A stretch of DNA of 59,857 nt from a virus (taxonomy: Duplodnaviria > Caudoviricetes), in IMG/VR virus record IMGVR_UViG_3300012347_000101, positions 1 through 59,857 of that record; one strand, given 5' to 3'. Positions 1-59,857 of this stretch are shown here, piece after piece. The translations under genes were made by a program, and so were the position numbers. Below the pieces are notes generated by a model that was given only the letters and a program-made list of their open reading frames with translations, made no database searches and was not told the origin of the DNA. Every line of letters starts with the position of its first letter. The first letter of the stretch is position 1.

Positions 1-55
1 CCTTCGGCGACGAGCCTGATAAGGTCTTCAACAGTCTGTCCGTCAAGTTCGGCTC
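1..55. repeat. 55-bp terminal direct repeat (identical to 59803-59857); assembly overlap of a circular contig
   Basis: Exact match ccttcggcga...ttcggctc at both ends; two ORFs continue in frame across the join. Confidence 0.95.
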
Positions 56-190
56 GCGCTTGTGCATTGTTGCCGGCAGTGGAGGCACATCCACTCGCGG
101 GGGCGAGGGGGACGTACAGCCTTGGGCGGCTAGCAATAACGGTAGACAGCTTAGTTTCAAAATCTTGCTTAACGGCTTCATCTTTGACAT
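1..190 (-). CDS. rz1: Rz1-like outer-membrane lipoprotein spanin, 80 aa, nested in Rz in another frame (190..1 then 59802..59750)
   Basis: MSKMKPLSKILKLSCLPLLLAAQG-C-TSPSPPRVDVPPLP...: basic N-region, hydrophobic core, lipobox-like AQGC, Pro-rich mature part; AAGGA upstream. Confidence 0.7.
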   Translation of the reverse strand, partial: MSKMKPLSKILKLSCLPLLLAAQGCTSPSPPRVDVPPLPATMHKREPNLTDRLLKTLSGSSPK

Positions 191-347
191 CTTGTTCATC
201 CTTCAGAGTCTGCATCTGGTGGTTCTTCTGAGCTATCAGGGCTGCATCCTCGGCTTCCTTTAGCGCATAGCCGACATGGTGGCCGGTTAAGTACACAGTT
301 AAAGCGGCAGCGATAGCCCCTAGAATCATCCAAGGGTTGGGCATCAT
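1..347 (-). CDS. rz: Rz-like inner-membrane spanin, 141 aa, spanning the join (347..1 then 59802..59724)
   Basis: Manual translation MMPNPWMILGAIAAALTVYLTG...RLYVPLAP...AELDGQTVEDLIRLVAEGDRAIIELNSCIDRY; N-terminal TM, coiled coil, directly upstream of the endolysin; 426 nt total. Confidence 0.8.
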   Translation of the reverse strand, partial: MMPNPWMILGAIAAALTVYLTGHHVGYALKEAEDAALIAQKNHQMQTLKDEQDVKDEAVKQDFETKLSTVIASRPRLYVPLAPASGCASTAGNNAQARAELDGQTVEDLIRLVAE

Positions 348-844
348 ACTCCCTCCAGTCGTGCGGCTGCTCGTTCACGGGCGATGTCCTCCACGGCGGG
401 GTCTACGTAGTTAGCAGGGGTTGAGGGCGGTGGGGGTGCGCGCCACTCTTCGTCCAGCTCAGGGTTCTTGAACCCATTGAAGTTAAAGTCAAACATGCCC
501 GACTGAACCGTAGGCGCGGGGCTAACACTAGGCGCTACGGTTTGGGGCTGTGGGGGTTGCACCTGTGAGGTGGCGATACGCTCTGAAATGGCCTGAACAC
601 CCTTCTTCGACATCACCCCGCCTATGCCGCCAACAATCAACAACACGATGTCGTTGAGCATCTTAGCAAAGGCTTGATCCATCGGAGCCATGCTCTTGAG
701 CGGCTGCGTGACGTAAGCAAGGCTGTACAGCATAAACATCACGATTCCGGCAAGGATGATCGTGACGATGATGACCACAACGGCCCAGACTCGGACCTCG
801 ATCTCTTCAGCGGTCAGCCGATGCGGCGGGTATTGGTGCTTCAA
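344..844 (-). CDS. Two-TM membrane protein in the lysis cassette (holin/antiholin candidate)
   Basis: Two hydrophobic helices; stop overlaps the Rz start. Confidence 0.55.
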   Translation of the reverse strand: MKHQYPPHRLTAEEIEVRVWAVVVIIVTIILAGIVMFMLYSLAYVTQPLKSMAPMDQAFAKMLNDIVLLIVGGIGGVMSKKGVQAISERIATSQVQPPQPQTVAPSVSPAPTVQSGMFDFNFNGFKNPELDEEWRAPPPPSTPANYVDPAVEDIARERAAARLEGV

Positions 845-1022
845 TTTTCTTCTCCATTACGGGGGCTACAAGGTAATCGGGGCAGTCTTGTGTGAACTGA
901 CAGTCGGGCCGCTGGCAGCGCTTCTGCGCCCAGTTGGCGGGGTCTTGGCAATAGTAACGGAACCGCTCCTCGCAGGCCGTCAAACTACTCAGGATCAATA
1001 GGATCGCGGCGAGTTTTTTCAC
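807..1022 (-). CDS. Small Cys-rich lipoprotein
   Basis: Signal peptide with LTAC lipobox; mature part with four more Cys. Confidence 0.7.
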   Translation of the reverse strand: MKKLAAILLILSSLTACEERFRYYCQDPANWAQKRCQRPDCQFTQDCPDYLVAPVMEKKIEAPIPAASADR

Positions 1023-1167
1023 GTTTCTTTTCCTTCTCTTCTAAGCGGACGACTAACGCCTTCACTTCTTTGAGTTGCTTGTTTGTGTGTAGGGCGATCA
1101 TGGACAGAGCCATGATGCAGAATATCAGCAATGTGACGATTGCAACCCAAAACCAAAATTCCTTCAT
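985..1167 (-). CDS. Small single-TM membrane protein (start likely ATG 1167)
   Basis: MKEFWFWVAIVTLLIFCIMAL TM followed by a charged coil; overlaps neighbours. Confidence 0.6.
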   Translation of the reverse strand: MKEFWFWVAIVTLLIFCIMALSMIALHTNKQLKEVKALVVRLEEKEKKREKTRRDPIDPE

Positions 1168-1892
1168 AGAGTGAAATACATTCCAATCATTTGCAGCAGC
1201 CCCATTGCGGTTGCTACTACGTAGGTCAGCTTGGCCACCAGAATTTCTTTGCGGTGTTCTTGTCGCCATCGGTTGTCCCGTTCTCTCTTTGCTTTGAGTT
1301 CCCGAGCAACCTCTTGCTCTTCTAAAATCTCATCGTACTTGGACAAAAACTCTTTGTACATTGACCCCAACCCTAGAGACTCTGGTGTACCGTAGATCAT
1401 GGACTGCTTCAGCTGCGCAGACAGTTGATCCATCTGCCACTGAATCTCTATGCGGTCAATCGCACTGTCGGCAACTTTGTCGGTGGTCAAGGCCAGCTCG
1501 TCTAGTTCTCGGCAGTGTGCTTTGAGGTGCCTCATGGCTTCAAAGTAGACTTTCAAATTCTCACAAATCTCATGCACCGCGCGCGCCTGAAACTCCTCAT
1601 AACTCAGTTCGGGCTCAGGCTCGCGCTTGGCTTTAGGCTTTGCGGCTTCTTGAACAGGTTTCTGAACATCAAGTGGTACCGCAGTCTTTTTCGGTGCAAC
1701 TCCACATAAGTTTTGCACCCAAGCCCACAACCCCGTGACCTCTTTGAAGATCGCTTTTGCATCCGCTACGCCGCCTTCGACTTGCTTTTTGAACTTGCCA
1801 ATTTCAGCCTTCCCCTCGGATAGCATCTGGCAGCCAGCGCGTATAGCGCCAACCGCACTTTGTGCCATGAGGAGAAGACTGATTGGATCCAC
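1164..1892 (-). CDS. Hypothetical coiled-coil protein with C-terminal TM
   Basis: 242-aa ORF, MDPISLL start, tight operon packing. Confidence 0.7.
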   Translation of the reverse strand: MDPISLLLMAQSAVGAIRAGCQMLSEGKAEIGKFKKQVEGGVADAKAIFKEVTGLWAWVQNLCGVAPKKTAVPLDVQKPVQEAAKPKAKREPEPELSYEEFQARAVHEICENLKVYFEAMRHLKAHCRELDELALTTDKVADSAIDRIEIQWQMDQLSAQLKQSMIYGTPESLGLGSMYKEFLSKYDEILEEQEVARELKAKRERDNRWRQEHRKEILVAKLTYVVATAMGLLQMIGMYFTL

Positions 1893-1894
1893 AT

Positions 1895-2101
1895 TTACAT
1901 GCCGATCAACCGTTTGAAGAACTCAGCCGCCGCTCCAGGCCCGAGCAGGACAGCCGCAAGCACCGCATAAATGAGGTATTGCATCTTGTCCATACGCTCC
2001 GCACCTTTGTCTAGGCGGTCACTGATGGTCTCGTAACGTTGAGCACACACGGCTTCGTGAGTGTCCAAACGGGCTGCGGTTACTGAGATTGTATCGGTCA
2101 T
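1895..2101 (-). CDS. Small membrane protein (holin/XhlA-like)
   Basis: RLDTHEAVCAQRY coiled coil plus one TM; first gene of the lysis block. Confidence 0.55.
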   Translation of the reverse strand: MTDTISVTAARLDTHEAVCAQRYETISDRLDKGAERMDKMQYLIYAVLAAVLLGPGAAAEFFKRLIGM

Positions 2102-2103
2102 GA

Positions 2104-2634: not shown

Positions 2635-2646
2635 GGTTGTTTCTCC

Positions 2647-5184: not shown

Positions 5185-5187
5185 GTG

Positions 5188-7686: not shown

Positions 7687-7696
7687 GCTCTAGTCC

Positions 7697-8074: not shown

Positions 8075-8077
8075 TGC

Positions 8078-8479: not shown

Positions 8480-8509
8480 CTTTTTCAAATGAATCAACCG
8501 TATTCATCG

Positions 8510-10903
8510 TCAGAACGTACCACCGTTGATCCCGCCCCAAGCCGGTGCGCTCGTTCCGGCAGATGTTAAGACCTGCCCCGCAGTGCCGTTAGCGATGAAG
8601 CTCGTAGCGCCTGCGCCGGTTTGGTAAGGGATCTGGCTGGCGATACCGCCTGCGAGGTTGGTGGCTGTTCCGGTGGTGACCGTGCTCGGGGCCACGTTAG
8701 TCCAGTAAGGGCCGCTCGAGTTGTACTGCAGCAGGTTGCCGTTAGCTAGGGTGCCTGAGTTGATGTAAACATCATGCAGTTCGCTAATCTCGTAACCGTT
8801 CTGCGTATGTACGTAGATTGAACCAGCCCCGCCTGAGCCACCTTTAACCACGTAACCGACCATCACCAAATGCTGCGGCGCTACCGGTTTTGTAGCTGTC
8901 CAAGCGCCTGGAGTAGTGGGCGACAGGTAAATGATTTGACCATCGGTGAACCCAGTGGTGTTCAAACCGTTTACGGTACCTTGAGTGGTCACAAAACCGC
9001 TCGAGTTGTTAGCAATAGACTCGGTCACAACGCCGATAATCGCCGCCGAGTCAGCATCAGAGTCCGCTTGTGCTAGCGCTACGGTCAAACGCTGGCCCTG
9101 TGAACCGCTACAGTAAACCACTTGGCCGTCAGTCAGCGTGGAGCCGGTGTTGTTGTAAACGTAAATGACGGTCTCTTGACCGACCTGCAAGTTCACGTTT
9201 CCACCTACCATACCCACCTGAGGGCCGCCGTTAGTTGTGTCCCATTGGAAACGACCGACGGTAGGGGTTGTGGTGGCTGCCGTGTTGAGCTGAACGTAAT
9301 CTGTACCCACCGCAGTCAAACCCGTAGCCGAGCCGCCGGTGATAGCCACGGCGTTAGCGTTCTGGGTTGACATAGTGCCCAAGCCCGAGACCTGAGTGTT
9401 GGCGATAGCGATGTTGGTGTCAGCTAGCGCGGTGAGTTGGCCCTGTGCGTTCACAGTGGCGGTCAAAGTCTTGCTCGCAGCGCCGTAACTCGCAGCCGTA
9501 ACGCCGGTGTTGGCGATAGCCGCTGTGACCGCCGCCGAGCCGTCAAAGCTCGTGCCGGAAAGACCAGTTCCGAGGGTCAACGCATTCGCGACTTTACCCG
9601 CCGTGGTTGCTGAGGTAGCCGAAGTGGCTGTTGCAGCGTTGCCGCTGATGTCGATAGCCCAAGTGCCTGTGGCGTTAAGTCCGCTCACCGAAGGCGCGCC
9701 TACGCTGGCGTAATTCAGGCTGACAACGCCGGTTTGCCCGTTGACCGAGCTGACCGTGTTGGTCTGGTCAATTTTCTGCCAAATCGTGCCGTTGAAGATA
9801 GCCCAGTCGCCCACTTGCCAGTCAGTGATGCCGTCCAAGTTAGTCGTACCCGCAACCGACACCACGTAGTACCAACCGGACGTTCCGGTGCTTGACACTA
9901 AGGTCGGGGTGTTAGTAGAAGCGTCCCAAGCCCCCTTGTACACCAATCCTGGCACGAACGCCTGAGTGGTGATACCGGTAATGACACCCTTGGAGTTTAC
10001 AGTAACCACAGGGTAAGTGGACGTTGAGCCGTAAGTGTTAGCGGTGACGCCTGAATCGGGCAGGTCAGCGTTCACGATGTTACGGAAAGACGTAGGGGCG
10101 GAAGGGCCGCTAGCTGGCCCAGCGTAGAACAGGTTAGCTGCTTGGTCGGTCTGGATCAGCGCCGAACCCCAAGTATACTCACCGTTGCCGCCTGAGACGA
10201 GCACCTGACCGGCGAGTCCAGGAGGGCCAACGTACAAGCCGTCAGCGCCGCACCAGATGATCGCACCTGCGTCGGGGACGAGGCTCTTAGCCGTACCGCC
10301 GTTGCTCAGGCCGAGGATGTTGTCAACTTCGTCATCGCTTGACAAGTCCACAGCGGGGTGCTTGTGGTCGGAGCGAGACATCTCGGTTGAAACGCCCGCA
10401 GCTCCAGACTGGAAGCCTGACTCGGGTGTGCCGTCTGACAAGTTGGCAATGATGGTGACGTTGTTGTTCAACGTACCGCCACCCGACAAACCCGTTCCGG
10501 CAATGACCTCACGGGTCTCAGGCACATAGCCCGACACTTGTAACTGGGCCGTAGAAGCCGCCGTTACGCGACCCGTAGAGTCTACCGTGAAGACCGGAAC
10601 CTGTGTGGACGAACCGTAAACACCGGCAGACACGCCCGTGTCAGACAGCAACGAGCCGTTAATACCCTTTGAGGCCACACTGAGCGTGACGTTGTTGAGC
10701 AGCTGCCCACCGCCCGACAAACCCGTACCCGCAATGACTTGACGCGAAACCGGCACACCGGCTACGCTCAACAGGTCACCGGCGCGAATTTGGTAGTTGT
10801 TACCTTGATACACGATGAGCAGCAGGCTGTCCTCAGAGGCCACGGGGGCCGTAGGCAGCTGCGTGATTCGCGTGGGGATTAGATTGCTAGGTACGTCTGA
10901 CAT
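8510..10903 (-). CDS. Long tail fibre protein
   Basis: 797 aa Gly/Thr/Ser-rich; AGTGLSGGG, TVDSTGRVTAA and YKGAWDAS repeats; ends INGGTF. Confidence 0.8.
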   Translation of the reverse strand: MSDVPSNLIPTRITQLPTAPVASEDSLLLIVYQGNNYQIRAGDLLSVAGVPVSRQVIAGTGLSGGGQLLNNVTLSVASKGINGSLLSDTGVSAGVYGSSTQVPVFTVDSTGRVTAASTAQLQVSGYVPETREVIAGTGLSGGGTLNNNVTIIANLSDGTPESGFQSGAAGVSTEMSRSDHKHPAVDLSSDDEVDNILGLSNGGTAKSLVPDAGAIIWCGADGLYVGPPGLAGQVLVSGGNGEYTWGSALIQTDQAANLFYAGPASGPSAPTSFRNIVNADLPDSGVTANTYGSTSTYPVVTVNSKGVITGITTQAFVPGLVYKGAWDASTNTPTLVSSTGTSGWYYVVSVAGTTNLDGITDWQVGDWAIFNGTIWQKIDQTNTVSSVNGQTGVVSLNYASVGAPSVSGLNATGTWAIDISGNAATATSATSATTAGKVANALTLGTGLSGTSFDGSAAVTAAIANTGVTAASYGAASKTLTATVNAQGQLTALADTNIAIANTQVSGLGTMSTQNANAVAITGGSATGLTAVGTDYVQLNTAATTTPTVGRFQWDTTNGGPQVGMVGGNVNLQVGQETVIYVYNNTGSTLTDGQVVYCSGSQGQRLTVALAQADSDADSAAIIGVVTESIANNSSGFVTTQGTVNGLNTTGFTDGQIIYLSPTTPGAWTATKPVAPQHLVMVGYVVKGGSGGAGSIYVHTQNGYEISELHDVYINSGTLANGNLLQYNSSGPYWTNVAPSTVTTGTATNLAGGIASQIPYQTGAGATSFIANGTAGQVLTSAGTSAPAWGGINGGTF

Positions 10904-33550: not shown

Positions 33551-33849
33551 GTACGAACCACATTGAGGCCCGAGGCCGCACCATGTACTGCACCCGCTGT
33601 GAGTGCGCTGCGACTGTTAAAATGCCCGCCAACATTGACAACATCATCAAGCAGATGGACGACTTCCGTGATACGCATGAGAAATGCCCGCCCCGCGCTA
33701 GCGAGGCAGAGATGTCTGAGTACATTAGGGGTTTTGATGCCGGTTGCGAGCACCTGATGCGTGAGATAGAATTATTCAACAACCGAGCACCCCTGCAACC
33801 TGCGTTGGTTCCGGAAGTGCTGAAACACCTGCGTAAAGGCTTGAAATGA
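33547..33849 (+). CDS. Hypothetical protein with CxxC...HxxC
   Basis: YCTRC...HEKC; ATGA overlaps. Confidence 0.6.
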   Translation: MSTNHIEARGRTMYCTRCECAATVKMPANIDNIIKQMDDFRDTHEKCPPRASEAEMSEYIRGFDAGCEHLMREIELFNNRAPLQPALVPEVLKHLRKGLK

Positions 33850-34808
33850 CACAATCAATTTTCCCCGTCCTCGCACTTGACCGCGCTCAGGTGCAATGGG
33901 AGCAACACCTCGGGGACCTCACCCCGTGGGAGAACCGCGACGGTATCTGGTTCAAACGTGAGGACTACTTCGCGCCCCTCGGCTACGGCGGCCCTAACGG
34001 GTCTAAGATGCGCCAGCTCATTTGGTACATGAACCGCTACCGTGAGGGCAAGACTCACGTGCTGACCGGCGCGAGCATTCAGAGCCCACAGCTCAGTATG
34101 TCCGCCATCGTCGGCGCGCACTTCGGCCTCAAGTGCCGTCAGGTGGTCTACAGCAAGCCGCATACGGTGCTGACGCATGAGAACCCGAGTATCTCAGCCG
34201 GTTTCGGCGCTGTGTTTGAGTACGTGAACGGGCCGTACAACCCCATCATCCAACGGCGCGTGGTTGACCTGACTCAGCCCACCTCACTGGTGGTTGAGTA
34301 CGGCATCACGGTGCCGCACAAGACGCGCCCCGCTGAAGATGTGTTGAAGTTTCATGAGGTCGGCGCTAACCAGATTCGCAACTTGCCCGCTGAGGTGAAG
34401 ACGCTGATCGTACCTGCCGGCTCATGCAACTCGCTTTGCAGCATGTTGTTAGGTCTCAGCCGAGACTCCAAGAACCTGAACCGCCTGCGCATCGTGGGTA
34501 TCGGCCCTGACAAGCGTAAGTGGGTGCGTGAGCGTATGGTGATTATGGGGGTTGACATTGACCGCCTGCCGTTCGTCACCGAGTACCACAGCCTGCACGA
34601 CACCGGCTTCAGCAAGTACAGCGACAAGTTCAAAGGTGAAAACCACTCCGGTATCAATTTTCACCCCACGTATGAGGCCAAAATTTGGCGTTACCTGCGT
34701 GAGTCGGCCTCGCTTTACGCTGATGACAAGACTGGGTTCTGGATCGTCGGTAGCGCGCCTAATCCCGCAATCGTGAAGCCGTTCTACACTAACACAGGAG
34801 CCGCCTGA
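33846..34808 (+). CDS. PLP-dependent (fold type II) enzyme; putative decarboxylase acting on amino-acylated DNA thymidine
   Basis: LTP...WFKRED...NGSKMRQ (Schiff-base Lys), VPAGSCNS loop, FHPTYEAK; context of the modification cluster. Confidence 0.8.
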   Translation: MTQSIFPVLALDRAQVQWEQHLGDLTPWENRDGIWFKREDYFAPLGYGGPNGSKMRQLIWYMNRYREGKTHVLTGASIQSPQLSMSAIVGAHFGLKCRQVVYSKPHTVLTHENPSISAGFGAVFEYVNGPYNPIIQRRVVDLTQPTSLVVEYGITVPHKTRPAEDVLKFHEVGANQIRNLPAEVKTLIVPAGSCNSLCSMLLGLSRDSKNLNRLRIVGIGPDKRKWVRERMVIMGVDIDRLPFVTEYHSLHDTGFSKYSDKFKGENHSGINFHPTYEAKIWRYLRESASLYADDKTGFWIVGSAPNPAIVKPFYTNTGAA

Positions 34809-35648
34809 TGTTTAACCGTATTTACACAATCATCAAGCGTCGAGTCAAGCGCAAGCTAACCGTTGTCATCTACAAGAAGCCCAAGATCGTGCGTGCCTCA
34901 ACGCTTGAGCGCGCCCAACACTACGTTGACAACCACGGCTGCCCGACGACACGATGCTTCCCTCGCACCACGGACGATGCGTTCCGCCACTTGGGTGACG
35001 GCATGGAGACGTTCTTCCCCCCTGAGCAACGCTGGCAAGACAAAGCAATGTTTGCCGTTGGCGTTTGCTGCTGGATCGCCCTTGGCATTTTTTACTGGAG
35101 ATACCTATGAACATACATCAATGCCAAAAATGGGCAGAAACAAACGGCTTTGACGGGGCTGAGTTTTATGCAGACTTTCCAGCAGGTAGGAAAAAGTGCA
35201 AGTGGCTTGATGCGTACTTTGGGATGTTTGAGATTCCTGGGGTAACAGACGGTTTCCTTATGGTCAGCCAAATAGACGAAATGTTTCCAAATCTTTCTTG
35301 TGAACCGATTGAGGGTAAAAATGAACAAATTCTTTAAAGACGTAGTTAGCCTGCTTTACTGGCTCTTTCCCTTCATCTGCACCTGCGCGTTTGCGTACGT
35401 GTTCGGCGCGTTCATCGAGTGGTCACGCGACCCCGCTGACTGGGCTTGGCAGGCGCGTTTCTGCGCCGTTATCTTTGGTGTCTCGCTCGGGTTCGCGGTT
35501 GACCGCCGCCTTGAGTTCAACGTGCGGGACTGAGATGGAAGCTGTTGAAAATATCGTATTGATGGCGCTACTCATGGCGCTCGGTGTCAGCGTCACTGTC
35601 GCGGTGCTGATTGGTTTCTTATATCACTTGGAGGCTCAGAATGATTGA
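34808..35648 (+). other. Four small hypothetical genes (34808-35110, 35107-35337, 35321-35533, 35535-35648), three with TM helices
   Basis: Overlapping or abutting ORFs between the PLP enzyme and the transferase. Confidence 0.55.
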
Positions 35649-36633
35649 CTACCGCCTGCCGGAGAAGCGTGAGGAGTACTTCACCGCGCTCTACAAGATG
35701 AACCTCGAGTACGGCGTCATGCCTGGACTCGTGTACTTGTACATGCCCGCCTTGGCAAAGGCTAACGGCTGGGACGCTGAGCAGAAGCTCTGGTTCGCGT
35801 TCCTGAACGGGTTGACTCAGAACCCTATCACCTCGTTGCGTATGTTCCAACGCCTGTCAGAGTGTCCGCCCGAAGGCGCACCCCTCACTGGCTTTGAGCA
35901 GTGGTTCAACGACAACTGGGAGACCTTGCAATTTGACACCGACCGCCGGTATCAAAAGAAGGACACCCTGCCCGCTATCCGCCAGTACGCAAAGCTCGTC
36001 AAGCAATACGGCTCGCAGGAGCAAATGCTCACCGGCGCTTACGCTGATCTGTGGAAGTTGGTTCGTGAGAACTACTACACGTTCGGTCGCCTGAGTTCCT
36101 TCAGCTACCTCGAGTACGTACACATCATGGGGTTCGGTGATGACTGTGACGACTTGATCTTCAGCGACAAGTCGGGCAGCAAGTCACACCGTAACGGTAT
36201 GTTGTTCCTCATCGGCAAAGACGACTTGGTGTGGGACAAGCGCCTGCCTAACGGTCAAGACGGCAACTACAACAACTTCAAGATGATGTGCGGGTTCTTA
36301 GCCTCTAGCGCAGATGCGCACATTGAGAAGTTCAAAGCCCTGAACCCTGACGTACCTAATGTGGGTCGGTTCACCTTTGAGTCTAACCTGTGTACGTTCA
36401 AGAATCACTTCTTCGGTCGTCGCTATCCAGGAGTCTACGCCGACATGGCACAAGACCGTATTGAGTGGGCAGACGAGCGCGGGCAGCAGGAACACACCGA
36501 GGTGTTCAAAGGTATGCGCGCGGGGCTGTTGCCTGAGTGGTTGCGTCGTGAGTGCTCACCGGCCTCAGTAAAGTCGGTTGGCGCTTTGTTCCCTGAAACG
36601 GGTGTCCCTTATCGTGCGGAGTACTTCTTATGA
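35641..36633 (+). CDS. Amino acid:DNA transferase (aGPT-Pplase2 family)
   Basis: DYRLPE.R, LWFAFL.G.T, FDTDRRYQK, FGRLSSFSYLE, SHRNG, ESNLCTFK, RYPG.Y.D. Confidence 0.8.
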   Translation: MIDYRLPEKREEYFTALYKMNLEYGVMPGLVYLYMPALAKANGWDAEQKLWFAFLNGLTQNPITSLRMFQRLSECPPEGAPLTGFEQWFNDNWETLQFDTDRRYQKKDTLPAIRQYAKLVKQYGSQEQMLTGAYADLWKLVRENYYTFGRLSSFSYLEYVHIMGFGDDCDDLIFSDKSGSKSHRNGMLFLIGKDDLVWDKRLPNGQDGNYNNFKMMCGFLASSADAHIEKFKALNPDVPNVGRFTFESNLCTFKNHFFGRRYPGVYADMAQDRIEWADERGQQEHTEVFKGMRAGLLPEWLRRECSPASVKSVGALFPETGVPYRAEYFL

Positions 36634-37176
36634 ATCCAACCCCTCGTTTGCGCTTTGTTGAGCGCGGTGTAATAGAACACGAAAGCCCTGACGGAACGGT
36701 CACGGTGGTGCGTAAGGTTCGCATCCTGCAGCAGTGGTTTGCGTACGACATCGAATACCCGATGACTAAAGGTGAATGGAAGGATGTACCATGCGAAACC
36801 GAACAATGACCGAACGCTCACGCCAAGCTGCAATCCGCCGCTTGAGCAAGTACCCTCTCGGCGGTGACAACTTCGGCTGGCACAAGTACTACGCTGAACG
36901 GTTCAACAAGACAGGTCGCCCTGACTGCGCCCATCTGGCGATTTGGTACTTGTTGCTACATCTTGCGTTAGGAGAAGAACAATGAAGTTGTCACGGTATA
37001 GAATCATCAAAGACAGCTACGCAGGGTTCGAAGTTCAGAAGTGGCGGTTGTGGTGGCCGTTTTGGATGCAATGTCACACGGGTCTTACACTGTGCAACAC
37101 TCATGACAGTCTTGAAAAGGCTTTGGCTTTTGTCGAATGGCATAAGGCCGGCAAAGAAGTTTGGAGGGAACAATGA
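36630..37176 (+). other. Three small hypothetical genes (36630-36809, 36806-36985, 36982-37176)
   Basis: Chained ATGA overlaps; 36630-36809 (LRFVER...ILQQW...GEWKDVP) is absent from the ORF track. Confidence 0.6.
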
Positions 37177-37754
37177 ATTTTCAAATCGTAAACATTCGCG
37201 GCTGTAACGGCTCAGGCAAGACCACAATCGTGCGCCGGTTCCTTGATCGCCTGCACACCGTCAAGCTCGGCCCTAACCAGAGCAAGCCTTGGGGCTATAG
37301 TGTTGACGCCTCTGCTTGGGGTATCCAGACCCCGATCATGGTCATCGGCTCGTATGAGAACACCTGTGGTGGTACTGATGGTATTAGCACTCAGGAAGAG
37401 ATCGCTGACCGCGTGGTTAGGGCTCGTGACTACGGACATGTGCTGGTTGAAGGTTTGCTCATGAGCAAAAGTTCCGCTGGTGGTCACGTAGCTCCGATCC
37501 TAAAAGACTACGGCGCTATCTTCGGGTTCCTTGACACGCCTTGGGATGTCTGCTTGCAGCGCGTGCTTGACCGCCGTAAGGCCGCCGGCAACGACAAGCC
37601 GTTCGACCCCGAGAAGACCATGCGCTCGGCCTATGAACAATGTCACCGCTCGGCTGAGCTGTTGACTCAAGCCGGTGGGTATGATGTCCGCTGGATCGAC
37701 CACCTGAACGCCGTCGGAACCGTCGTGCAATATTTGAAAGATGCTGAAGTATGA
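37173..37754 (+). CDS. P-loop nucleotide kinase associated with base modification
   Basis: IRGCNGSGKTT, IGSYENTCGGTD, LDTP...CLQRVLDRR lid. Confidence 0.8.
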   Translation: MNFQIVNIRGCNGSGKTTIVRRFLDRLHTVKLGPNQSKPWGYSVDASAWGIQTPIMVIGSYENTCGGTDGISTQEEIADRVVRARDYGHVLVEGLLMSKSSAGGHVAPILKDYGAIFGFLDTPWDVCLQRVLDRRKAAGNDKPFDPEKTMRSAYEQCHRSAELLTQAGGYDVRWIDHLNAVGTVVQYLKDAEV

Positions 37755-37984
37755 AAGTTAAATTTAGCGGTTGGCCTTGGCAGCCGGTTTATGATCATTG
37801 GTCCACCGGCCTCGACAAGACGGCTGGCGAAAAGTGGGGTTGGAACCCGTTCAAAGTTAAAGGTGCTGGTCGCTTCGGCGGTTGGTGGGCGTTCAAGTTC
37901 GGAATCACAATCTCGAGCAGTCTGCGGGACGTTATCATCGACCTAGGAATAGGTTCAATCCGCATCACTGGAGAACGTAAATGA
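37751..37984 (+). CDS. Hypothetical Trp/Gly-rich protein
   Basis: ATGA overlaps on both sides. Confidence 0.6.
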   Translation: MKVKFSGWPWQPVYDHWSTGLDKTAGEKWGWNPFKVKGAGRFGGWWAFKFGITISSSLRDVIIDLGIGSIRITGERK

Positions 37985-38898
37985 TTGATGTCTGCCCGTA
38001 CAAGCGCCCTGACGAGCGCACCGTGACCTCGCTTGAGGGGTTGCTGTACTTCGTCTGGGAACGTGAAGCCGTTCGAGTCGCCAAAGAGGGCGGCTGGCCG
38101 GTTGACTCACTCACCAATGACCCTGTACTCAAGAAGTACAAGTTCACCAATATTCGCCGCCGTGATGATCGTGTCTCTCAGTGGGTCATTGATCACTTGA
38201 TTGAGCCTCACTACGATGACAGCAGTTTGTGGTTTACGTTGCTCATCGCGCGCCTAATCAACTGGCCCCCGACCTTGCAGGCGTTGATGCATGAACGCGT
38301 CATCCCTTGCGGCCCTTACGAGTTTGACGCTGAGTTGTTCTCAGTGACGATTGAGGCGCTCAAGGGTGACGGAGCTAAGGTCTACTCGGGCGCTTACATG
38401 GTCTACCCGACCAAGATGGACGTGGGGGGTAACAAGTCTTCCGCGATCGCCACGCATATCATCGGGGACGTCATCAAACACTCGGATGATATCCACTCGG
38501 CGCTCTGGTATTGCCAGCCCACGGTGGCGGGGTTTGTCGAGGCGCTCTCTAAATGTTTTGGCCTGAGCACTTTTATGGCGGGCCAAGTGGCTGCTGATTT
38601 GACATATTGCCCTCACCTGAGTGGGGCGGCTGATTTGTTCACCTACGCGCCAATCGGCCCAGGAAGCTCTCGCGGTCTGAACTACTTGAAGGGCCGCCGC
38701 CCGTTTGCGAGCTGGGGTCAGGCGGACTTCAACAAGGCGCTCATCGAGGTGCGCGAGGCGATTGAAGAGCGCCTTGACATACAAGACATGACGCTACATG
38801 ATGTGCAAAACGTTATGTGCGAATTCAGCAAGTATTGCCGCTGTGTCCTGAATGAGGGCGTCCCTAAAACTATCTACAAACCCGAGGAGTTGTTCTAA
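37981..38898 (+). CDS. 5-hydroxymethyluracil DNA kinase (aGPT-Pplase1 family)
   Basis: ERE, T.DPVL..YKFTNIRR.DDRVS, YSGAY, FMAGQVAADL, GPGS.RGL, CEFSKY. Confidence 0.85.
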   Translation: MIDVCPYKRPDERTVTSLEGLLYFVWEREAVRVAKEGGWPVDSLTNDPVLKKYKFTNIRRRDDRVSQWVIDHLIEPHYDDSSLWFTLLIARLINWPPTLQALMHERVIPCGPYEFDAELFSVTIEALKGDGAKVYSGAYMVYPTKMDVGGNKSSAIATHIIGDVIKHSDDIHSALWYCQPTVAGFVEALSKCFGLSTFMAGQVAADLTYCPHLSGAADLFTYAPIGPGSSRGLNYLKGRRPFASWGQADFNKALIEVREAIEERLDIQDMTLHDVQNVMCEFSKYCRCVLNEGVPKTIYKPEELF

Positions 38899-39894
38899 AT
38901 GGAAATTACTGTACGCAACGTGAATCAGGCTTTTGGTGAGGTCTTCTGGAAGATGAAGGCGCTCGGGCTCAAGCCTGAAAACACCCGTAACGGCCCCGCG
39001 CTCGTGTTCCCTGAGCCGGTCATCACCACCTACCGCTACCCGCAGGAGCGAGTGTTGTTCCACAAGGGGCGCGATGCGAACCCGATATTCCATCTGATGG
39101 AGTCGATCTGGATGCTAGCGGGCCGCCGTGACGTGCAGTTCCTGCAGCACTTCAACAGCACTATTGGCCAGTTCAGCGATGACGGCAAGGTGTTCAACGC
39201 TGCATACGGCTACCGCTGGCGTAGGCACTTCGGGTTTGACCAACTTGAGGAAGTCATCAAAGCCCTGCGCCGTGACCCTGAAACCCGTCAGGCCGTTATT
39301 CAGATGTGGGATCAAGATGACCTCGTCAAGCGTACTAAGGACAAGGCGTGTAACACACAGGTCGTCTTTGACACCCGTGGTAACAAACTGAACATGACCG
39401 TGTTCAACCGCTCTAATGACATCTGGTGGGGTGCCTACGGCGCTAACGCTGTGCACTTCAGTTTCCTGCAAGAGTTCGTCGCCTGCGCCATCGGTATGCG
39501 CTGTGGGGCTTACCGTCAGGTGAGTAACAATCTTCACTTGTACACTGAAGTCTACAACGCCACAAAGTATGTGGAATCACCCCCGAACCATGAAGACTTT
39601 GACCTGTATTCATCGGGTATCGTTCGCCCCACACCTATCATGCTCAACGGCGACTACAAGTCGTTCCTAGCTGACTGTGAGAAGTTCTGCTGCGATCCGT
39701 TCAATCAGTCAGCTGAGTACAAGAATCCGTTCTTCACGCATGTGGCGCAGCCGATGGCCATGGTCAGCCGCATTCGCAAGATCCGCGCCGGTGACGGCAC
39801 AGGCTTCGCTGCTAAGATCCGCGCTCAAGACTGGAAGCGCGCGGTGTTCGATTGGATCCACAAGCGCGAATTGCTTAGGGCCGAGAAAGAGTAA
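38899..39894 (+). CDS. Thymidylate synthase superfamily dUMP hydroxymethylase
   Basis: TRNG, ANP.F...E, AYG.R, catalytic ACN, NRSND, GANAVHF (Asn indicates dUMP specificity), NLHLY; adjacent to the 5-hmdU kinase. Confidence 0.85.
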   Translation: MEITVRNVNQAFGEVFWKMKALGLKPENTRNGPALVFPEPVITTYRYPQERVLFHKGRDANPIFHLMESIWMLAGRRDVQFLQHFNSTIGQFSDDGKVFNAAYGYRWRRHFGFDQLEEVIKALRRDPETRQAVIQMWDQDDLVKRTKDKACNTQVVFDTRGNKLNMTVFNRSNDIWWGAYGANAVHFSFLQEFVACAIGMRCGAYRQVSNNLHLYTEVYNATKYVESPPNHEDFDLYSSGIVRPTPIMLNGDYKSFLADCEKFCCDPFNQSAEYKNPFFTHVAQPMAMVSRIRKIRAGDGTGFAAKIRAQDWKRAVFDWIHKRELLRAEKE

Positions 39895-40292: not shown

Positions 40293-40793
40293 ATGCGACA
40301 CACCCTTGAATTTATTATGGCCGGCAGTGAGGTCAAGCGGTATCACACCGTGCGCACACTGACGACCGAAACCGTGGGGCACCACTCTCACGGCGTGGCA
40401 ATGCTTTGCCTGTTGTTGAAGCCTGCCGCCTCTGAAAACCTGTTAAAAGCCGCGCTGTATCATGACCTCGCCGAGTGCATCACAGGTGACATTCCTTCCC
40501 CTGCTAAGCGCCTTTACGGTATCGGTACTCAAGTCAGTGATCTTGAAGACAAGTTACTGGCTGACCACGGTTTGCAGATGCCGAAACTTTGGCCCGCTGA
40601 GAAACGCATCCTCAAACTGGCTGACATCGCTCAAGGTGCGTTGTTCTGCACCCGTGAGGTCGAGCTGGGCAACCGCAAAATGAGCCTCATCTACGCTCGC
40701 TATATCTCTTACGCTGAGGACATGATCCTCGTTGGGCGCGAGCGCGAACTCTTCGATTTCATCAACACTAAATTTTTGGAGATCTTCAAATGA
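40293..40793 (+). CDS. HD-domain deoxynucleotide phosphohydrolase (YfbR-like)
   Basis: KRYH...ETVGHHS, ALYHDLAE.ITGDIPSP.K, KLAD. Confidence 0.85.
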   Translation: MRHTLEFIMAGSEVKRYHTVRTLTTETVGHHSHGVAMLCLLLKPAASENLLKAALYHDLAECITGDIPSPAKRLYGIGTQVSDLEDKLLADHGLQMPKLWPAEKRILKLADIAQGALFCTREVELGNRKMSLIYARYISYAEDMILVGRERELFDFINTKFLEIFK

Positions 40794-41227
40794 CTGCAAA
40801 CACTATGCAAATCGGCGGCAACCACTACCGCTCAGGTATCCAGCACTGGGACTTGATGGACGACTACCGTGTCGGCTATCTTGAGGCCGCCGCGACTAAG
40901 TACATCACCCGCTGGCGCAACAAAGACGGCGTCAAGGACTTGCAGAAGGCTTTGCACTTCGTCAAGAAACTCGCTGAGAAGCGTCAAGACGCGCCGCAGG
41001 TTGAGATCTCTGAGCGCATCCCTCAGGTGCCCCGTCAGGCTATCAACAAGTTCCTCGAGGCTAATCAGCTCACCGGCGACGATGCCGACATCATTAGCCA
41101 CCTGCTCACTTGGCAGAGTACCGGTACTTTACACCTTGTTGCGGGTCGCATTCAGCAGGTCATCAACGGCGCTACGCCTGATGACGGCGCTGACGCCTCA
41201 ATCGGTTACGTCAATCAGGATCGTTAA
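40790..41227 (+). CDS. DUF3310 (SaV/T7 gp1.7-like) protein; possible nucleotide kinase
   Basis: QIGGNHY...KYITRWRNKDGVKDLQKA.H. Confidence 0.8.
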   Translation: MTANTMQIGGNHYRSGIQHWDLMDDYRVGYLEAAATKYITRWRNKDGVKDLQKALHFVKKLAEKRQDAPQVEISERIPQVPRQAINKFLEANQLTGDDADIISHLLTWQSTGTLHLVAGRIQQVINGATPDDGADASIGYVNQDR

Positions 41228-43068
41228 TGCCTACTTTCGTGTTCGACATCGAGACACTCCCCAACTACACTCTGGTGTCCTTCAAGGACATCGAGTCGAA
41301 GGAGTATTTCCGCTTCCGCCGTAACGAGCCGGACGCAGTCGAGCGCCTGAAAGCCTTCCTCAACTCTGATGACACGTACATCGGGTTCAACAGCAACAGC
41401 TTTGACAACATCGTGCTGGCGGCCTTCCTAGCAGGGCGCACAACGATTGAGATCAAGCGCATAGCTGATGACCTGATTGTGAACCGTGTGTCACCTTGGC
41501 AGGCGTACACCAAATACTCCCTGCTGCGCCCTGCGATTGACACCATCGATTTGATTGAGGTTGCACCCTCATTTGTTGGCCTCAAAGCCTACGGCGCGCG
41601 TATGCATATGCCGCTGCTGCAGGACATGCCGATAGCTCACGACGAGTGGATCACTGAAGAGCAGCGCCCTATTGTTGACTCGTACTGCGACAACGACTTG
41701 GACACCACGGAAGAGCTGGTCAACCGGCTCGAGCCTGAGCTGATGCTCCGCATCGCGATGTCTAAGCAGTATGGCGTGGACATGCGTAGCAAGTCTGATG
41801 CGCAAATGGCTGAGCAGGCGTACATCACCTCGATGGGCCTGCAACGCCGTGACAACAAGATCCCTAAGACGATCACCTACACGCCGCCCGCCTTCCTGAA
41901 GTTTCAAGACGCCGAGCTGCAACACCTGCTTGAAAGGGTCTCCCGCCATGTCTTCGATATCAACCAAGCAACAGGACATGTTATCCTACCTGACTTTCTT
42001 GGCGGGGAAGTCATCAGCTTTGGGAGCGGAACCTATCAGCTCGGTGTTGGCGGCATCCATAGCACCCACGATAAGTCAGTTTGCTACGTTGCCGGCGGAG
42101 AAACAATCTGCGATATTGACGCAGCTAGCTTCTACCCGAGCATCATCCTTGAGTGCGGATTTGTACCTGCGAGCCTTGGAAAGCGGTTTGTCGATGAGTA
42201 TCGTCAAATTTACGAGCGACGACTTGAAGCTAAGCGTACAGGAGATAAAGCAACCAATGAAACCCTGAAGATTTCGCTCAACGGCACGTTCGGCAAGCTC
42301 GCTTCTAAGTACTCTGTGTTGTACTCGCCTGACCTGATGCTCGCCGTTACGCTCACCGGCCAGTTCACATTGCTGATGCTGATTGAGTGGCTCGAAATCC
42401 TCGGGGCTACCACCCTTAGCGCCAACACTGACGGCATCGCGATCCGTTACGGAAACCACCTCGAGGCTGGCGTTCAGAAGGTGGTTAAGCGTTTCAGCGA
42501 GGTGTCTCGGTTTGAATTTGAGTTCACGCCGTACCGTGTACTGGCTATGAAAGACGTCAACAACTACATCGCGGTCAAACCTGACCGTAAACTGAAGGCG
42601 AAGGGAATCTATGCTCCACTCTCTCTTAAGAAAAACCCGACTGCTCAGGTGGCAGCGGATGCAGTGTCGGAATGGTTGGCAACGGGAACTCCGTTTCAAG
42701 ATACGATTAAAGCTGCGCCTTTCACAGATTTTATCAGTGCGCGTAACGTCACGGGTGGCGGTGAGCAAAATGGCGTGCCCCTCGGTAAAGTTGTCCGGTG
42801 GTATCAATCGTCGGATGCTAGCCTACCGCCACTTAAGTACATTAAAAATGGCAACAAAGTACCAAAGACGGAAGGCGCGCGGGCGTGTATGACTTTGAAA
42901 GACAAGGTCACGCATCCCGCAGACCTTGACTACGAATGGTATCATAAAGAGGCAATCAAGATCGCACTCGCGGTTGGGTGTCACGCATACCTCACTGACG
43001 AACAGCTTAAACTTGTTGCCCCGCCCCCAAAGAAAACTCGAAAGAAGAAAACAGATGTCACAACATGA
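41227..43068 (+). CDS. Family B DNA polymerase with 3'-5' exonuclease
   Basis: Exo FDIE, FN...FD, YC.ND; polymerase DAASFYPS, KISLNGTFGK, NTDG, DVNNY. Confidence 0.9.
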   Translation: MPTFVFDIETLPNYTLVSFKDIESKEYFRFRRNEPDAVERLKAFLNSDDTYIGFNSNSFDNIVLAAFLAGRTTIEIKRIADDLIVNRVSPWQAYTKYSLLRPAIDTIDLIEVAPSFVGLKAYGARMHMPLLQDMPIAHDEWITEEQRPIVDSYCDNDLDTTEELVNRLEPELMLRIAMSKQYGVDMRSKSDAQMAEQAYITSMGLQRRDNKIPKTITYTPPAFLKFQDAELQHLLERVSRHVFDINQATGHVILPDFLGGEVISFGSGTYQLGVGGIHSTHDKSVCYVAGGETICDIDAASFYPSIILECGFVPASLGKRFVDEYRQIYERRLEAKRTGDKATNETLKISLNGTFGKLASKYSVLYSPDLMLAVTLTGQFTLLMLIEWLEILGATTLSANTDGIAIRYGNHLEAGVQKVVKRFSEVSRFEFEFTPYRVLAMKDVNNYIAVKPDRKLKAKGIYAPLSLKKNPTAQVAADAVSEWLATGTPFQDTIKAAPFTDFISARNVTGGGEQNGVPLGKVVRWYQSSDASLPPLKYIKNGNKVPKTEGARACMTLKDKVTHPADLDYEWYHKEAIKIALAVGCHAYLTDEQLKLVAPPPKKTRKKKTDVTT

Positions 43069-52172: not shown

Positions 52173-52181
52173 CTTGGCTCC

Positions 52182-54904: not shown

Positions 54905-55329
54905 TTGTGTGACTCAAAATTTTCCCTTAAAAACCCATAAACGCAAAGGTCATCATCAATGAATGCCCTGCGCATGACCCCTTCGAGCTGGAAGCCGATG
55001 TGTTCGTCAAACCGGCGAGCAGCCGTATTCTTTGAACGCACAAGCCCCGTGACCCGCTGCAATTTCAATCTGTCAAACACGAACTCAAAGAGTTCGTTAA
55101 ACATCTTGACGATCTCCCGAGGGCGAGCCCAGCTCGCGCCAGGAACCGCCGCAGTGTGCATGTCTACCCCGAGCGCACTGAAGTTTGACAACACGATGAC
55201 AAACACAAAGTTGTCATTCTCATCAACCGCCGACACCGCCCTGCAGAACCCCGTCACACCCTCGATACCGAGCACGTTCTTAGCCCATTCCACAGCCTCA
55301 AGCTCACGCTCAAACCCTATGTACCGCAT
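54889..55329 (-). CDS. GNAT-fold tail assembly protein (start ATG 55329)
   Basis: F..LKLQRVTGLV...N......EHIGFQLEG..R; between tail hub and ejection genes. Confidence 0.7.
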   Translation of the reverse strand: MRYIGFERELEAVEWAKNVLGIEGVTGFCRAVSAVDENDNFVFVIVLSNFSALGVDMHTAAVPGASWARPREIVKMFNELFEFVFDRLKLQRVTGLVRSKNTAARRFDEHIGFQLEGVMRRAFIDDDLCVYGFLRENFESHKWRRK

Positions 55330-55556
55330 CAGCTCAGGCTCTGGCAGAACCGGTCTGCCCATTCACGCCAATCTTCATACGCATACGGTATAGGCGGGTT
55401 ACGCCCGATTGTTGTGTTGTTGAGGAACTGAACTGCCCAGTCTTGCCAGTGGGCTTCGTCGGTGAGACGACCGAACGCACCGTAGGGGTCGAGGTCTAAA
55501 ATGACCTGATTGGCCCAGTCGAGGAGTTCGAGGTTGGTCGGCAGTGTGACTATCAT
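55329..55556 (-). CDS. Small Trp-rich tail-module protein
   Basis: WQDWA...P.PY...DWREWA; overlaps neighbours. Confidence 0.65.
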   Translation of the reverse strand: MIVTLPTNLELLDWANQVILDLDPYGAFGRLTDEAHWQDWAVQFLNNTTIGRNPPIPYAYEDWREWADRFCQSLS

Positions 55557-58425: not shown

Positions 58426-59057
58426 TATGCTTCACTCCGGTTTGCGGTACGATCCAGAATGCGCTTGAGGTCTTCACCGTTCAAGGCTTGTGCGGCGCGG
58501 TCGTACATGTTTTGCCATGTTTGGATACGTTCATCGTTCTTGAGGAACGGGGTGGCCTCGAGCAGCGTGGCGTAAAGCAAAACGTCAGGTGCGTACTCGG
58601 TGAGCCAGTTGGTTTGTACATCGTCGCCCAACAGGGGCGGCTGCTCGTAGTACACGATCTCTAACGTGCTGGTGGCGTTAGGTGTGGGGGTGATGAGCCA
58701 GTGTTGGTAGTCGTAGTCGGCGTAGAACTGAGGGGTGCCGGTTTGAGCCTCATCAGGCCAATATGAACGGCAGTACTCGTACGAGCGGGTGAAAATGGGC
58801 TTACCGTTCACGGTCATACTCACGGTATCACGCCAACGATCGGGCTTCATGTAGACGGCCACGCCGGTTTGTAGCGGGGTGGTCACAGCGGTAATAAAAC
58901 CGGTGATCTTCAGCTCACGCGCGATGCGCCGCTCACCTAGCGTAACTAGGCGCGGCAACTGCTCGTAAACATACTGGTCGCTCTCTTGCGTAAAACCACG
59001 CTCAAGGTAGCGCCGTACATCTTGCAGCAGCGAAGAATACGTCATTGAATAGCTCAT
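58425..59057 (-). CDS. Head-tail adaptor protein (start ATG 59057 or 59045)
   Basis: MTYSSL...E.RI.R.L, G.P.FYA, PTP, NWL...PD.LLY..L.EA..FLKNDER. Confidence 0.7.
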   Translation of the reverse strand: MSYSMTYSSLLQDVRRYLERGFTQESDQYVYEQLPRLVTLGERRIARELKITGFITAVTTPLQTGVAVYMKPDRWRDTVSMTVNGKPIFTRSYEYCRSYWPDEAQTGTPQFYADYDYQHWLITPTPNATSTLEIVYYEQPPLLGDDVQTNWLTEYAPDVLLYATLLEATPFLKNDERIQTWQNMYDRAAQALNGEDLKRILDRTANRSEA

Positions 59058-59104
59058 TAATACTCCAAAGGTACAAGCAGCTGATTCAGCCAACGCTGGT
59101 GGAA

Positions 59105-59133
59105 ATTATAGGTGGGAAACATGAATGGAGCAA
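59105..59133 (-). promoter_or_regulatory. Sigma70-like promoter for the tail/ejection operon
   Basis: TTGCTC-17 bp-TATAAT. Confidence 0.7.
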
Positions 59134-59137
59134 AATT

Positions 59138-59737
59138 TTAAACGGACAATACGTTCAAGGCTTCATTGGTGTGTTTGATGCGGTCATCAAGGCCGATGGT
59201 GCCGCCGTTGATCTTCTTTGTCAAAGCTGTCCAGTTAGCCTCATCCGCTAGAGGGTTGCACCCGTGCGTAGACCAGAACCACGCCGCAGTCAACGCCGCA
59301 AAGCGCGGGGTCGCCACGAGGTCGGGTTCTTTGACGAAGTCAAACCCTAGAGCTTGCCCAGCATGAAAATAGTTAGCATGCCCAGTAAGCTGGATACAGC
59401 CGCGACCACGAAAACGATACCCATCACCAGAAGACTCATCACGATTTCCCATTCGAGACGCATAAACAGAGTTCGCAATTTTCTTAGGGTTTCCGGCATA
59501 CTGGTTGGCGATTTCTAATGAGGGGAAACGGCGGGGCCAGAGCTTCATCAGCGTGGCGGCGCGGTAGTTCAGGTTCTCTTCTAGGATACGGAAATTGCCA
59601 CACTCATGGCCACATTGACCAATGAAGGCCGCCCGCTGGCGCAGGGACTTGATGTTGAAGCGGTCAAATGCCTCATTTAACGCATCAACCCACTGGGGGC
59701 CGATGTGGAGCTTCTGGAGTTGTTCAGCGGTTACCAC
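59138..59737 (-). CDS. Glycoside hydrolase family 19 endolysin
   Basis: FIGQCGHEC, ENLNY, FRGRGCIQLTG..NY, INGG..GL.DR. Confidence 0.9.
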   Translation of the reverse strand: MVTAEQLQKLHIGPQWVDALNEAFDRFNIKSLRQRAAFIGQCGHECGNFRILEENLNYRAATLMKLWPRRFPSLEIANQYAGNPKKIANSVYASRMGNRDESSGDGYRFRGRGCIQLTGHANYFHAGQALGFDFVKEPDLVATPRFAALTAAWFWSTHGCNPLADEANWTALTKKINGGTIGLDDRIKHTNEALNVLSV

Positions 59738-59802
59738 TCAGGGTCTCCTTTACTTGGTTGTACCGGTCGATACAGGAGTTGAGTTCGATGATTGCTCGGT
59801 CA

Positions 59803-59857
59803 CCTTCGGCGACGAGCCTGATAAGGTCTTCAACAGTCTGTCCGTCAAGTTCGGCTC
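59803..59857. repeat. Second copy of the 55-bp terminal overlap
   Basis: Identical to 1-55. Confidence 0.95.

Follow-up and report, generated by a model that had tools for sequence, protein, structure and literature searches.

The window examined here is the whole of IMG/VR record IMGVR_UViG_3300012347_000101 (59,857 bp), the genome of a tailed phage (Caudoviricetes) that is estimated to be 100% complete and has direct terminal repeats. In it, the sites CCWGG and GCCGGC (W is A or T) survive only where, on one strand or both, a T immediately precedes the site (T at position −1 or A at +1, called T-flanked below): 40 CCWGG and 17 GCCGGC copies of this kind are kept across positions 1 to 59857, and the unflanked forms, VCCWGGB and VGCCGGCB (V is any base but T, B any base but A), are absent. 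The genome also carries a predicted cluster for the hypermodification of 5-hydroxymethyl-2′-deoxyuridine (5-hmdU) of the type found in phages ViI and M6. We consider it likely that a hypermodified T directly 5′ of the site shields the copy from host restriction. What the analysis shows is the counts, the specificity for T, the set of genes and the pattern across genomes; from these we infer the modification, its chemistry and the steric blocking.

Avoidance of CCWGG and GCCGGC and the flanking T

The first-pass annotation of this sequence had described a genome-wide purge of CCNGG from which roughly 40 T-flanked CCWGG copies were exempt, and exact counting shows this pattern to be real and sharper than claimed. 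CCWGG occurs exactly 40 times (26 CCAGG and 14 CCTGG), with T at −1 or A at +1 in every copy (flank pairs G..A 13, A..A 8, T..C 7, T..A 6, T..G 4 and C..A 2), and the positions given as examples (1934, 45072, 6017, 38659, 57057 and 9947) are correct. Neither CCCGG nor CCGGG occurs (0 each) in a genome that holds 213 CCGG, 250 CCAG and 280 CCTG, again as the annotation had it.

In 300 synonymous-codon shuffles of the window, VCCWGGB is expected 82.9 ± 7.2 times (shuffle minimum 67) and is found 0 times, whereas T-flanked CCWGG is found 40 times against 56.4 ± 6.4 expected. The T-flanked copies are thus only mildly low and the remainder are erased. The total expected is 139 by the shuffles, 118.5 by a maximal-order Markov model and 128 by a first-order Markov model (49 T-flanked and 79 other), which bears out the earlier estimate of well over 100 copies with less than half T-flanked by chance. 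With a chance share of about 40%, 40 of 40 has a p of about 2e-16. The shuffle had been proposed as a check, and many copies of VCCWGGB or CCSGG (S is G or C) had been named as the adverse outcome; both stand at 0.

The effect is specific to T on the 5′ side. The flank matrices have entries solely in row T and column A; an A flank, though equal in AT content, does not rescue, and neither does T on the 3′ side (VCCWGGT[CG], 0 against 26.4 expected). A single flank is enough, and copies flanked on both sides number 6 against 9.2 expected. Among singly flanked copies, TCCTGGB, in which the flanking T lies on the strand bearing the central T, is fully spared (28 against 23.0; for example 9947..9952 on the plus strand) and TCCAGGB is partly spared (6 against 23.6; for example 1934..1939, plus strand); each still differs from the unflanked class, which has no copies (Fisher 8e-5). 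The preference for TCCTGG over TCCAGG was discarded as a general law, as a relative of the window (locus L074, introduced below) shows the reverse and both phage SP10 and another relative, G009, favour doubly flanked sites. Position −2 favours a pyrimidine (46 against 18 observed, 43.8 against 40.6 expected; p 9e-4). As a side observation, the spared sites are also asymmetric between the strands of the genome: on the plus strand ACCWGGA occurs 8 times (8.1 expected) and its reverse complement TCCWGGT 0 times (8.4 expected).

GCCGGC follows the same rule, with T at −1 or A at +1 in 17 of 17 copies (one of them, tGCCGGCa, at 71..78 on the plus strand). The shuffles predict 13.8 T-flanked copies against these 17 and 16.0 ± 3.9 unflanked copies against 0, and the survivors are mostly TTGCCGGC (14 against 4.6 expected). 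CGWCG obeys the rule in part, with 61 flanked copies observed against 98 expected and 23 unflanked against 105. The context proposed earlier, T before CC, therefore stands for TCC and has to be widened to TGCC and partly to TCG, i.e. to T directly 5′ of a site that begins with G or C, with a pyrimidine favoured at −2.

Other sites are purged whatever their flank. By codon-preserving expectation, CCSGG is found 0 times against 72 (TCCSGG alone 0 against 32.9), GGCGCC 0 against 28, CGGCCG 0 against 22.4-23, CCGCGG 0 against 24, GAGCTC 0 against 20.7-21 and AAGCTT 0 against 14-15.0, and GGWCC is nearly erased (9 against 92). Short palindromes in the window thus lie below the codon-preserving null, as restriction-site avoidance is usually recognized. 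The treatment of CCNGG as the target of one system did not hold: CCSGG is not rescued by T, and two relatives described below purge CCWGG yet keep CCSGG, so that a single CCNGG enzyme was rejected. A rule by which every site containing T followed by G or C is protected was likewise set aside as weakly supported, since GAGCTC is purged despite its TC; the ratio of observed to expected 6-mer palindromes is 0.72 for those with an internal T before G or C, 0.49 for those with T in other contexts and 0.55 for those made of G and C only. Separately, CGCG is purged solely as MCGCGK (M is A or C, K is G or T; ACGCGT, CCGCGG and ACGCGG/CCGCGT), with 8 copies against 83.8, and GCGCG and TCGCG persist; no enzyme was matched to this avoidance of a degenerate 6-mer.

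The hypermodification gene cluster

Five genes at 33.8-39.9 kb make up the predicted ViI/M6-type cluster, which encodes a pyridoxal 5′-phosphate (PLP) enzyme, an amino acid:DNA transferase (ADDT), a P-loop kinase, an HMUDK_hel protein and a thymidylate synthase homologue. All of them lie on the plus strand. The PLP-dependent enzyme (33846..34808) scores 21.8 bits with Pfam PALP, below the cut-off of 35, and matches phrog_3650 at 6e-80; tblastn finds it in 348 phage records, mostly ViI-like, with 33-35% identity over 95-98% of its length (E to 6e-58). Its nearest named kin, the PLP enzymes of ViI-like Ackermannviridae, mark it as the predicted tailoring enzyme, the PLP decarboxylase of the ViI route. 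The transferase, of ADDT or aGPT-Pplase clade 2 type (35611..36633), scores 66.9 bits with PF18724 (cut-off 26.2) and has tblastn matches in 376 phage records, again mostly ViI-like. The HMUDK_hel (aGPT-Pplase clade 1) protein, a homologue of M6 gp55 (37981..38898), scores 132.6 bits with PF18723 (cut-off 25), so that both aGPT-Pplase families are present above cut-off, and its 152 matching phage records include M6, phiW-14 and SP10.

The candidate 5-hmdU DNA kinase (37161..37754) gives weak Pfam P-loop matches, including HMUDK_HMUD1 below its cut-off (E 0.0065), and matches phrog_800 at 2e-17, a family labelled 'terminase small subunit', which is also the RefSeq label of M6 gp54. It lies directly upstream of the HMUDK_hel gene, the same arrangement as that of gp54 and gp55 in M6, and gp54 is described as a putative kinase in the part of PMC8989533 that deals with it. 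The thymidylate synthase homologue (38899..39894) is a candidate dUMP hydroxymethylase; it scores 80.7 bits with PF00303 and matches phrog_5131 at 5e-108, profiles that cannot separate thymidylate synthase from hydroxymethylase. The side chain made by such a set of enzymes would be a ViI-like amino-alkoxy group.

Downstream on the same strand, an HD-domain nucleotide phosphohydrolase (40293..40793; PF12917 and HD matches, phrog_6047 and phrog_7076) possibly clears the dTTP/dTMP pool, and the phage has its own DNA polymerase (41227..43068; phrog_1252, 7e-166). No DNA methyltransferase family (C5, N4/N6 or Dam-type) matches the genome, 40 of whose 83 open reading frames were profile-scanned, and a phage methyltransferase as protector was dropped on this basis. 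Tet_JBP has no match in the window or in three relatives discussed below, G009, G035 and G036. A side observation concerns a GNAT-like acetyltransferase gene (54889-55362, minus strand) that sits within the structural block, is conserved only in two close relatives (G001 and G002) and matches Pfam Acetyltransf_3 below cut-off (E 1e-4). Its product might tailor the base; acetyltransferases are part of the T-hypermodification route of phage PaMx11 as outlined in PMC8989533.

Greedy calling places 83 genes over 97% of the window, whose GC content is 55.2%. The early module occupies the plus strand at 31.6-48.9 kb, and the minus strand carries the structural and packaging genes, among them an Sf6-type small terminase, a large terminase, an SU10-type adaptor and a GH19 lysin; no tRNA was found in the window. 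The exact terminal repeat is 55 bp long and contains no CCWGG or CCSGG sites. A search for the host by way of capsid relatives in genome contigs led only to phage contigs, in metagenome bins of many taxa.

Footprints in relatives and in other lineages

Relatives were collected as 156 stretches in IMG/VR matched by the portal-like protein, 80 of which were kept. Two of them, G001 and G002, match the window in gene order, with protein identities of 80-99%, and carry the same cluster. Their CCWGG copies are T-flanked in 39 of 40 and 46 of 46 cases, respectively, and their GCCGGC copies in 15 of 15 and 16 of 16. At the sites that vary among the three genomes, either the flanking T changes strand in step with the central W, or a doubly flanked site keeps one flank and loses the other; the former is seen at 11555, where GACCAGGAA corresponds to GTCCTGGGA, and at 22849, where GTCCTGGGT corresponds to GGCCAGGAT. 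Two other relatives, G005 and G006, which are complete or nearly so, have only structural genes in common with the window and lack homologues of HMUDK_hel, ADDT and the thymidylate synthase. They hold 0 and 1 CCWGG (123 and 100 expected) and 0 and 1 GCCGGC (21 and 18 expected), respectively, and keep CCSGG (144 and 98 copies) despite the CCWGG purge. Among the portal-relative loci with a length of 9 kb or more, 52 in number, 12 have no CCWGG of either class. In this family, then, the cluster and T-flanked survival occur together in the clade of the window, and total loss is the usual state.

Some relatives differ from this picture. In G007, G008 and loci L059-L066 and L080 the rule is the opposite, with T-flanked CCWGG depleted (e.g. 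9 against 41 expected); the non-T-flanked copies of this clade are near expectation (33 against 49), and its CCGG and GGWCC are wholly purged. Locus L074 has a flank pattern like the window's, and its source record is 38% complete, so that its gene content cannot be judged. The long contigs of metagenome-assembled genomes were also considered as a source of further cluster-bearing relatives and were discarded, the sole HMUDK_hel match being on a separate 7.7-kb contig.

The broadest T-flank rescue of all, and in G035 the strongest footprint, belongs to a clade other than the window's. This clade is represented by G035 (the IMG/VR record behind L227, with loci L230-L232; 100% complete, 58.5 kb) and G009 (L106-L107; a 75%-complete fragment), both of 41% GC. 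Flanked and unflanked copies number 43 and 0 for CCWGG, 42 and 2 for CCGG, 75 and 11 for GCGC, 92 and 11 for GCWGC, 37 and 0 for GGWCC, 28 and 0 for GCSGC, and 24 and 0 for GGSCC. The early module of these phages encodes ThyX, a 301-residue protein like FAD/NAD oxidoreductases, an HAD phosphatase, DUF6378, an SDR protein, DnaQ, Pol III alpha, an SNF2 helicase and DUF932. A third relative, G036 (the record behind L229, with L233-L235; complete, 54.8 kb), has no HMUDK_hel or ADDT gene and shows partial T rescue at CCGG (114 flanked, 28 unflanked), CGWCG (31 and 3) and CGCG (40 and 8); its CCWGG is purged in both classes (2 against 63 expected).

We compared ten cluster-bearing phages from other lineages, and eight of them display T-specific rescue; in four of the phages discussed here, ViI, phiW-14, SP10 and M6, the modified base is known to be T, and for ViI, phiW-14 and SP10 the hypermodified T is chemically proven. 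In ViI, CCGG occurs 227 times T-flanked and 8 times unflanked (175 expected; p 2e-52). Flanked and unflanked copies in phiW-14 number 23 and 1 for GCCGGC, 23 and 0 for GGGCCC, and 6 and 0 for NotI sites, and those in SP10 39 and 1 for GGCC (51.5 expected unflanked) and 26 and 0 for GGWCC (42.5). RHph_I65 has 30 and 0 GANTC (92 expected unflanked), 27 and 2 GCCGGC, and 15 and 0 GAGCTC, and Bordetella phage CN1 has 14 and 0 GCCGGC (50 expected). In M6, 6 of 6 GCCGGC are T-flanked, and both Sonora and M6 show T rescue at GGGCCC.

A fixed criterion was then applied to 30 genomes, by which an event requires unflanked copies at no more than 10% of expectation and flanked copies at 50% or more. The 12 cluster genomes yield 21 events in 785 testable cases for a T flank, against 0 of 773 for A, 1 of 778 for C and 0 of 792 for G. 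In the 15 genomes lacking the cluster the figures are 2 of 836 for T, 1 of 836 for A, 0 of 835 for C and 0 of 831 for G; both T events are in Pseudomonas phage PB1 and rest on small numbers, and the A event is GGCC in Felix O1. PB1 (NC_011810.1) has no HMUDK_hel gene; its GACGTC and GTCGAC survive only T-flanked (8 against 0 and 11 against 1), and its GTAC, GATC and CGCG lean toward T-flank survival.

GGCC can be followed through three phages that we take to have B. subtilis as common host (it is named only in the SPO1 record) and whose T is hypermodified (SP10), plain 5-hydroxymethyluracil (5-hmU; SPO1) and unmodified (SPP1), respectively. Flanked and unflanked copies number 39 and 1 in SP10, 3 and 1 in SPO1 (65 and 59 expected) and 62 and 64 in SPP1. 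This series suggests that the shield is hypermodification and not 5-hmU itself. Elsewhere in SPO1 (NC_011421.1), T-flanked GATC is kept (255 against 224 expected) and other GATC is depleted (52 against 208), and GGCC, CGCG, GCWGC and CGWCG have been purged whether T-flanked or not. In this phage the protection given by plain 5-hmU thus seems to be confined to certain sites. A different flank effect occurs in the Nodularia phage vB_NspS-kac65v151 (NC_048756.1), where 118 of 119 CGATCG copies are G-flanked (26 expected), i.e. read GCGATCG or CGATCGC, an extended form similar to the HIP1 palindrome of cyanobacteria.

Proposed mechanism, alternatives and known systems

We propose the following model. 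5-hmdU would probably replace T during replication, and a subset of it would then be hypermodified on the DNA by the kinase, the amino acid:DNA transferase and the PLP enzyme acting in turn (a ViI-like route). The hosts would possess numerous Type II restriction systems, whose sites selection would have removed almost completely, exempting copies of CCWGG, GCCGGC and in part CGWCG that have a T directly 5′ on at least one strand. As the 5′ T of a site that begins with G or C sits before G or C, the preferred context reported for the kinases, this T would be hypermodified, and its bulky amine side chain would sit at one half-site's edge, within the major groove. One blocked half-site would preclude double-strand cleavage, so that such copies would be unseen by selection and persist at about chance frequency. 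Where cleavage leaves a 5′ overhang, the enzyme reaches its site from the major groove, which the 5′ portions of the two strands line; a long cationic group at C5 would lie beneath such an enzyme if carried by the 5′-flanking T, but would not if carried by the 3′-flanking one. Sites purged regardless of flank may be so because their enzymes would not contact the flank position. The rescue in a second, unrelated site, GCCGGC, supports the core of this model.

Several observations weigh against the model. Within the window, T gives no rescue at CCSGG, GGCGCC, CGGCCG, CCGCGG or GAGCTC, the last of which even contains TC; in CCTGG the T at the centre, though followed by G, does not protect on its own; and the asymmetry between TCCTGG and TCCAGG is not predicted by a simple rule that any T before G or C is modified and protective. 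The close relatives are not independent samples, as the window, G001 and G002 have 30 of the 40 sites in common. Two of the 12 cluster genomes, the Nodularia phage and Microbacterium phage Golden, show no event by the fixed criterion. PB1, in which no modification is known, has two small T events (unflanked copies 0 against 13 and 1 against 16 expected), and Felix O1 of Salmonella (NC_005282.1), not known as a modified phage, keeps GGCC solely in A-flanked form, i.e. preceded by A on one strand or both (40 copies against 35 expected, the rest 1 against 21). G035 and G009 have no match to HMUDK_hel, ADDT or Tet_JBP; the known cluster is thus not necessary for a T-flank pattern. In the comparison of relatives with and without the cluster that had been suggested earlier, G001 and G002 share the footprint, G005 and G006 purge nearly all copies, and G035 has the pattern without the known genes. 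Since host-enzyme preference cannot account for one flank rule over seven specificities, we read G035 as pointing to an unknown modification and not as a refutation; it is quite conceivable, though somewhat less likely than not, that T or the T:A pair is modified in this clade by a pathway not yet described.

In the window itself, the shield might be a modification of the flanking T:A pair by something other than the aGPT-Pplase/HMUDK cluster. We regard this as unlikely, whether the group would be on the adenine at +1 or would be made by an unrecognized route as in the G035/G009 clade. Sequence cannot tell which base of the pair bears the group, G035 has the footprint without the known genes, and the GNAT-like gene of the window is unexplained. 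The window, however, holds a full T-hypermodification cluster, no adenine-modifying gene is found among the 40 of 83 open reading frames scanned, and the footprint recurs in ViI, phiW-14, SP10 and M6, whose modified base is T. Less probable still, the host enzymes might have extended specificities that cut VCCWGGB and VGCCGGCB and skip T-flanked sites whatever the state of the DNA, in which case the phage's modification would have no part in the pattern. Cleavage rates that depend on the flank are a feature of the Type IIE enzymes EcoRII and NaeI, and flank rules do exist where no modification is known, as MCGCGK in the window and the A flank of Felix O1 illustrate. But the same T exception would be needed for two unrelated specificities in the window and would have to recur in about ten more, in unrelated hosts and only for phages with modified T, and the family members that purge CCWGG and GCCGGC and lack the cluster retain no T-flanked copies.

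Mutational decay, in which Dcm-type methylation of CCWGG and deamination of 5-methylcytosine (m5C) erase all but the T-flanked sites that the methylase disfavours, is very improbable. The first-pass annotation had considered this route and had taken CTAGG, CTTGG and CTCGG to be common; CTCGG/CCGAG is indeed somewhat enriched (172 against 124 expected), but CTWGG/CCWAG is near expectation (244 against 223.5) and CTGGG/CCCAG is depleted (98 against 141). Decay would not yield 0 copies where 83 are expected, would not account for the purge of GCCGGC and five further 6-mers, and would leave the T exception in need of an account of its own. That chance, codon usage or base composition produced the pattern is practically negligible: the expectations vary with the model, but the three null models agree, the 40-of-40 bias is far beyond sampling, and A flanks do not rescue. 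Thus, host restriction countered by a modified-T shield, as proposed in the annotation, held at its core in every comparison run, and the parts that fell away are the inclusion of CCSGG, the deamination and TCC as the only context.

Hypermodified thymines block restriction in vitro. If the modified-T shield is real, the footprint would be an evolutionary read-out of the sites that are truly protected in vivo, and would indicate that a single modified base on one of the strands, next to but not within the recognition sequence, suffices and that only the 5′ position counts. T-flank survival would then serve as a sequence-only detector of thymine-directed modification and as a cheap screen of metagenomes for modified-T phages, including those with unknown pathways, which is relevant to phage sequencing, cloning and phage-host prediction. 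Anti-restriction by hypermodified T is known as a kind of mechanism, whereas neither the T-specific, flank-conditional footprint nor its generality seems to have been described before; we found no description of flank-conditional avoidance in the literature, on which Miller et al. 1985 (phiW-14 restriction) and the supplements of PMC6449724 may bear.

The nearest published counterpart is the work of Flodman et al. 2019 (PMC6449724), which deals with the same modification family and the same context of T before G or C. In the parts of that article that bear on these sites, the restriction sites of M6, ViI and phiW-14 DNA that resist cleavage in vitro are enriched for TG and TC, a kinase preference for T before G or C is suggested from the digests, and a tGCCGGC flank is named as a possible effect that 'cannot explain all resistant sites' on phiW-14 for the five enzymes given below. 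The work is enzymology on three phages with no genome-composition analysis (the words 'avoid' and 'selection' do not occur in its text), whereas the footprint described here is evolutionary. According to the same source, phiW-14 DNA resists ApaI, NaeI, NgoMIV, NotI and PspOMI; in our counts 52 of the 53 NaeI, ApaI and NotI sites of this phage are T-flanked, and the footprint would account for the failure of enzymes with GC-only sites on its DNA.

ViI, whose modified base is 5-aminoethoxymethyl-dU, resembles the window in having kin of the ADDT and the PLP enzyme, in its T-flank rule (at CCGG) and in purging CCSGG regardless of T. It differs in being a 157-kb enterobacterial myovirus that does not avoid CCWGG (285 against 293 expected); the window is a 60-kb phage of a freshwater host and has an additional clade-1 HMUDK_hel protein like that of M6. 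Phage T-dioxygenases provide another route to modified T in which T before G or C recurs: they are sequence-specific, with NTC or NTG preference in the data of PNAS 2026 (PMC13229309) that concern them, and correspond to the Tet_JBP domain that finds no match in the window. Classical palindrome avoidance, for which Table 4 of PMC8034619 lists the 6-mers missing from viruses, GCCGGC and GGCGCC among them, likewise leaves short palindromes below codon-preserving expectation. It is, however, unconditional, whereas avoidance in the window hinges on one flanking base, the base that the phage is predicted to modify.

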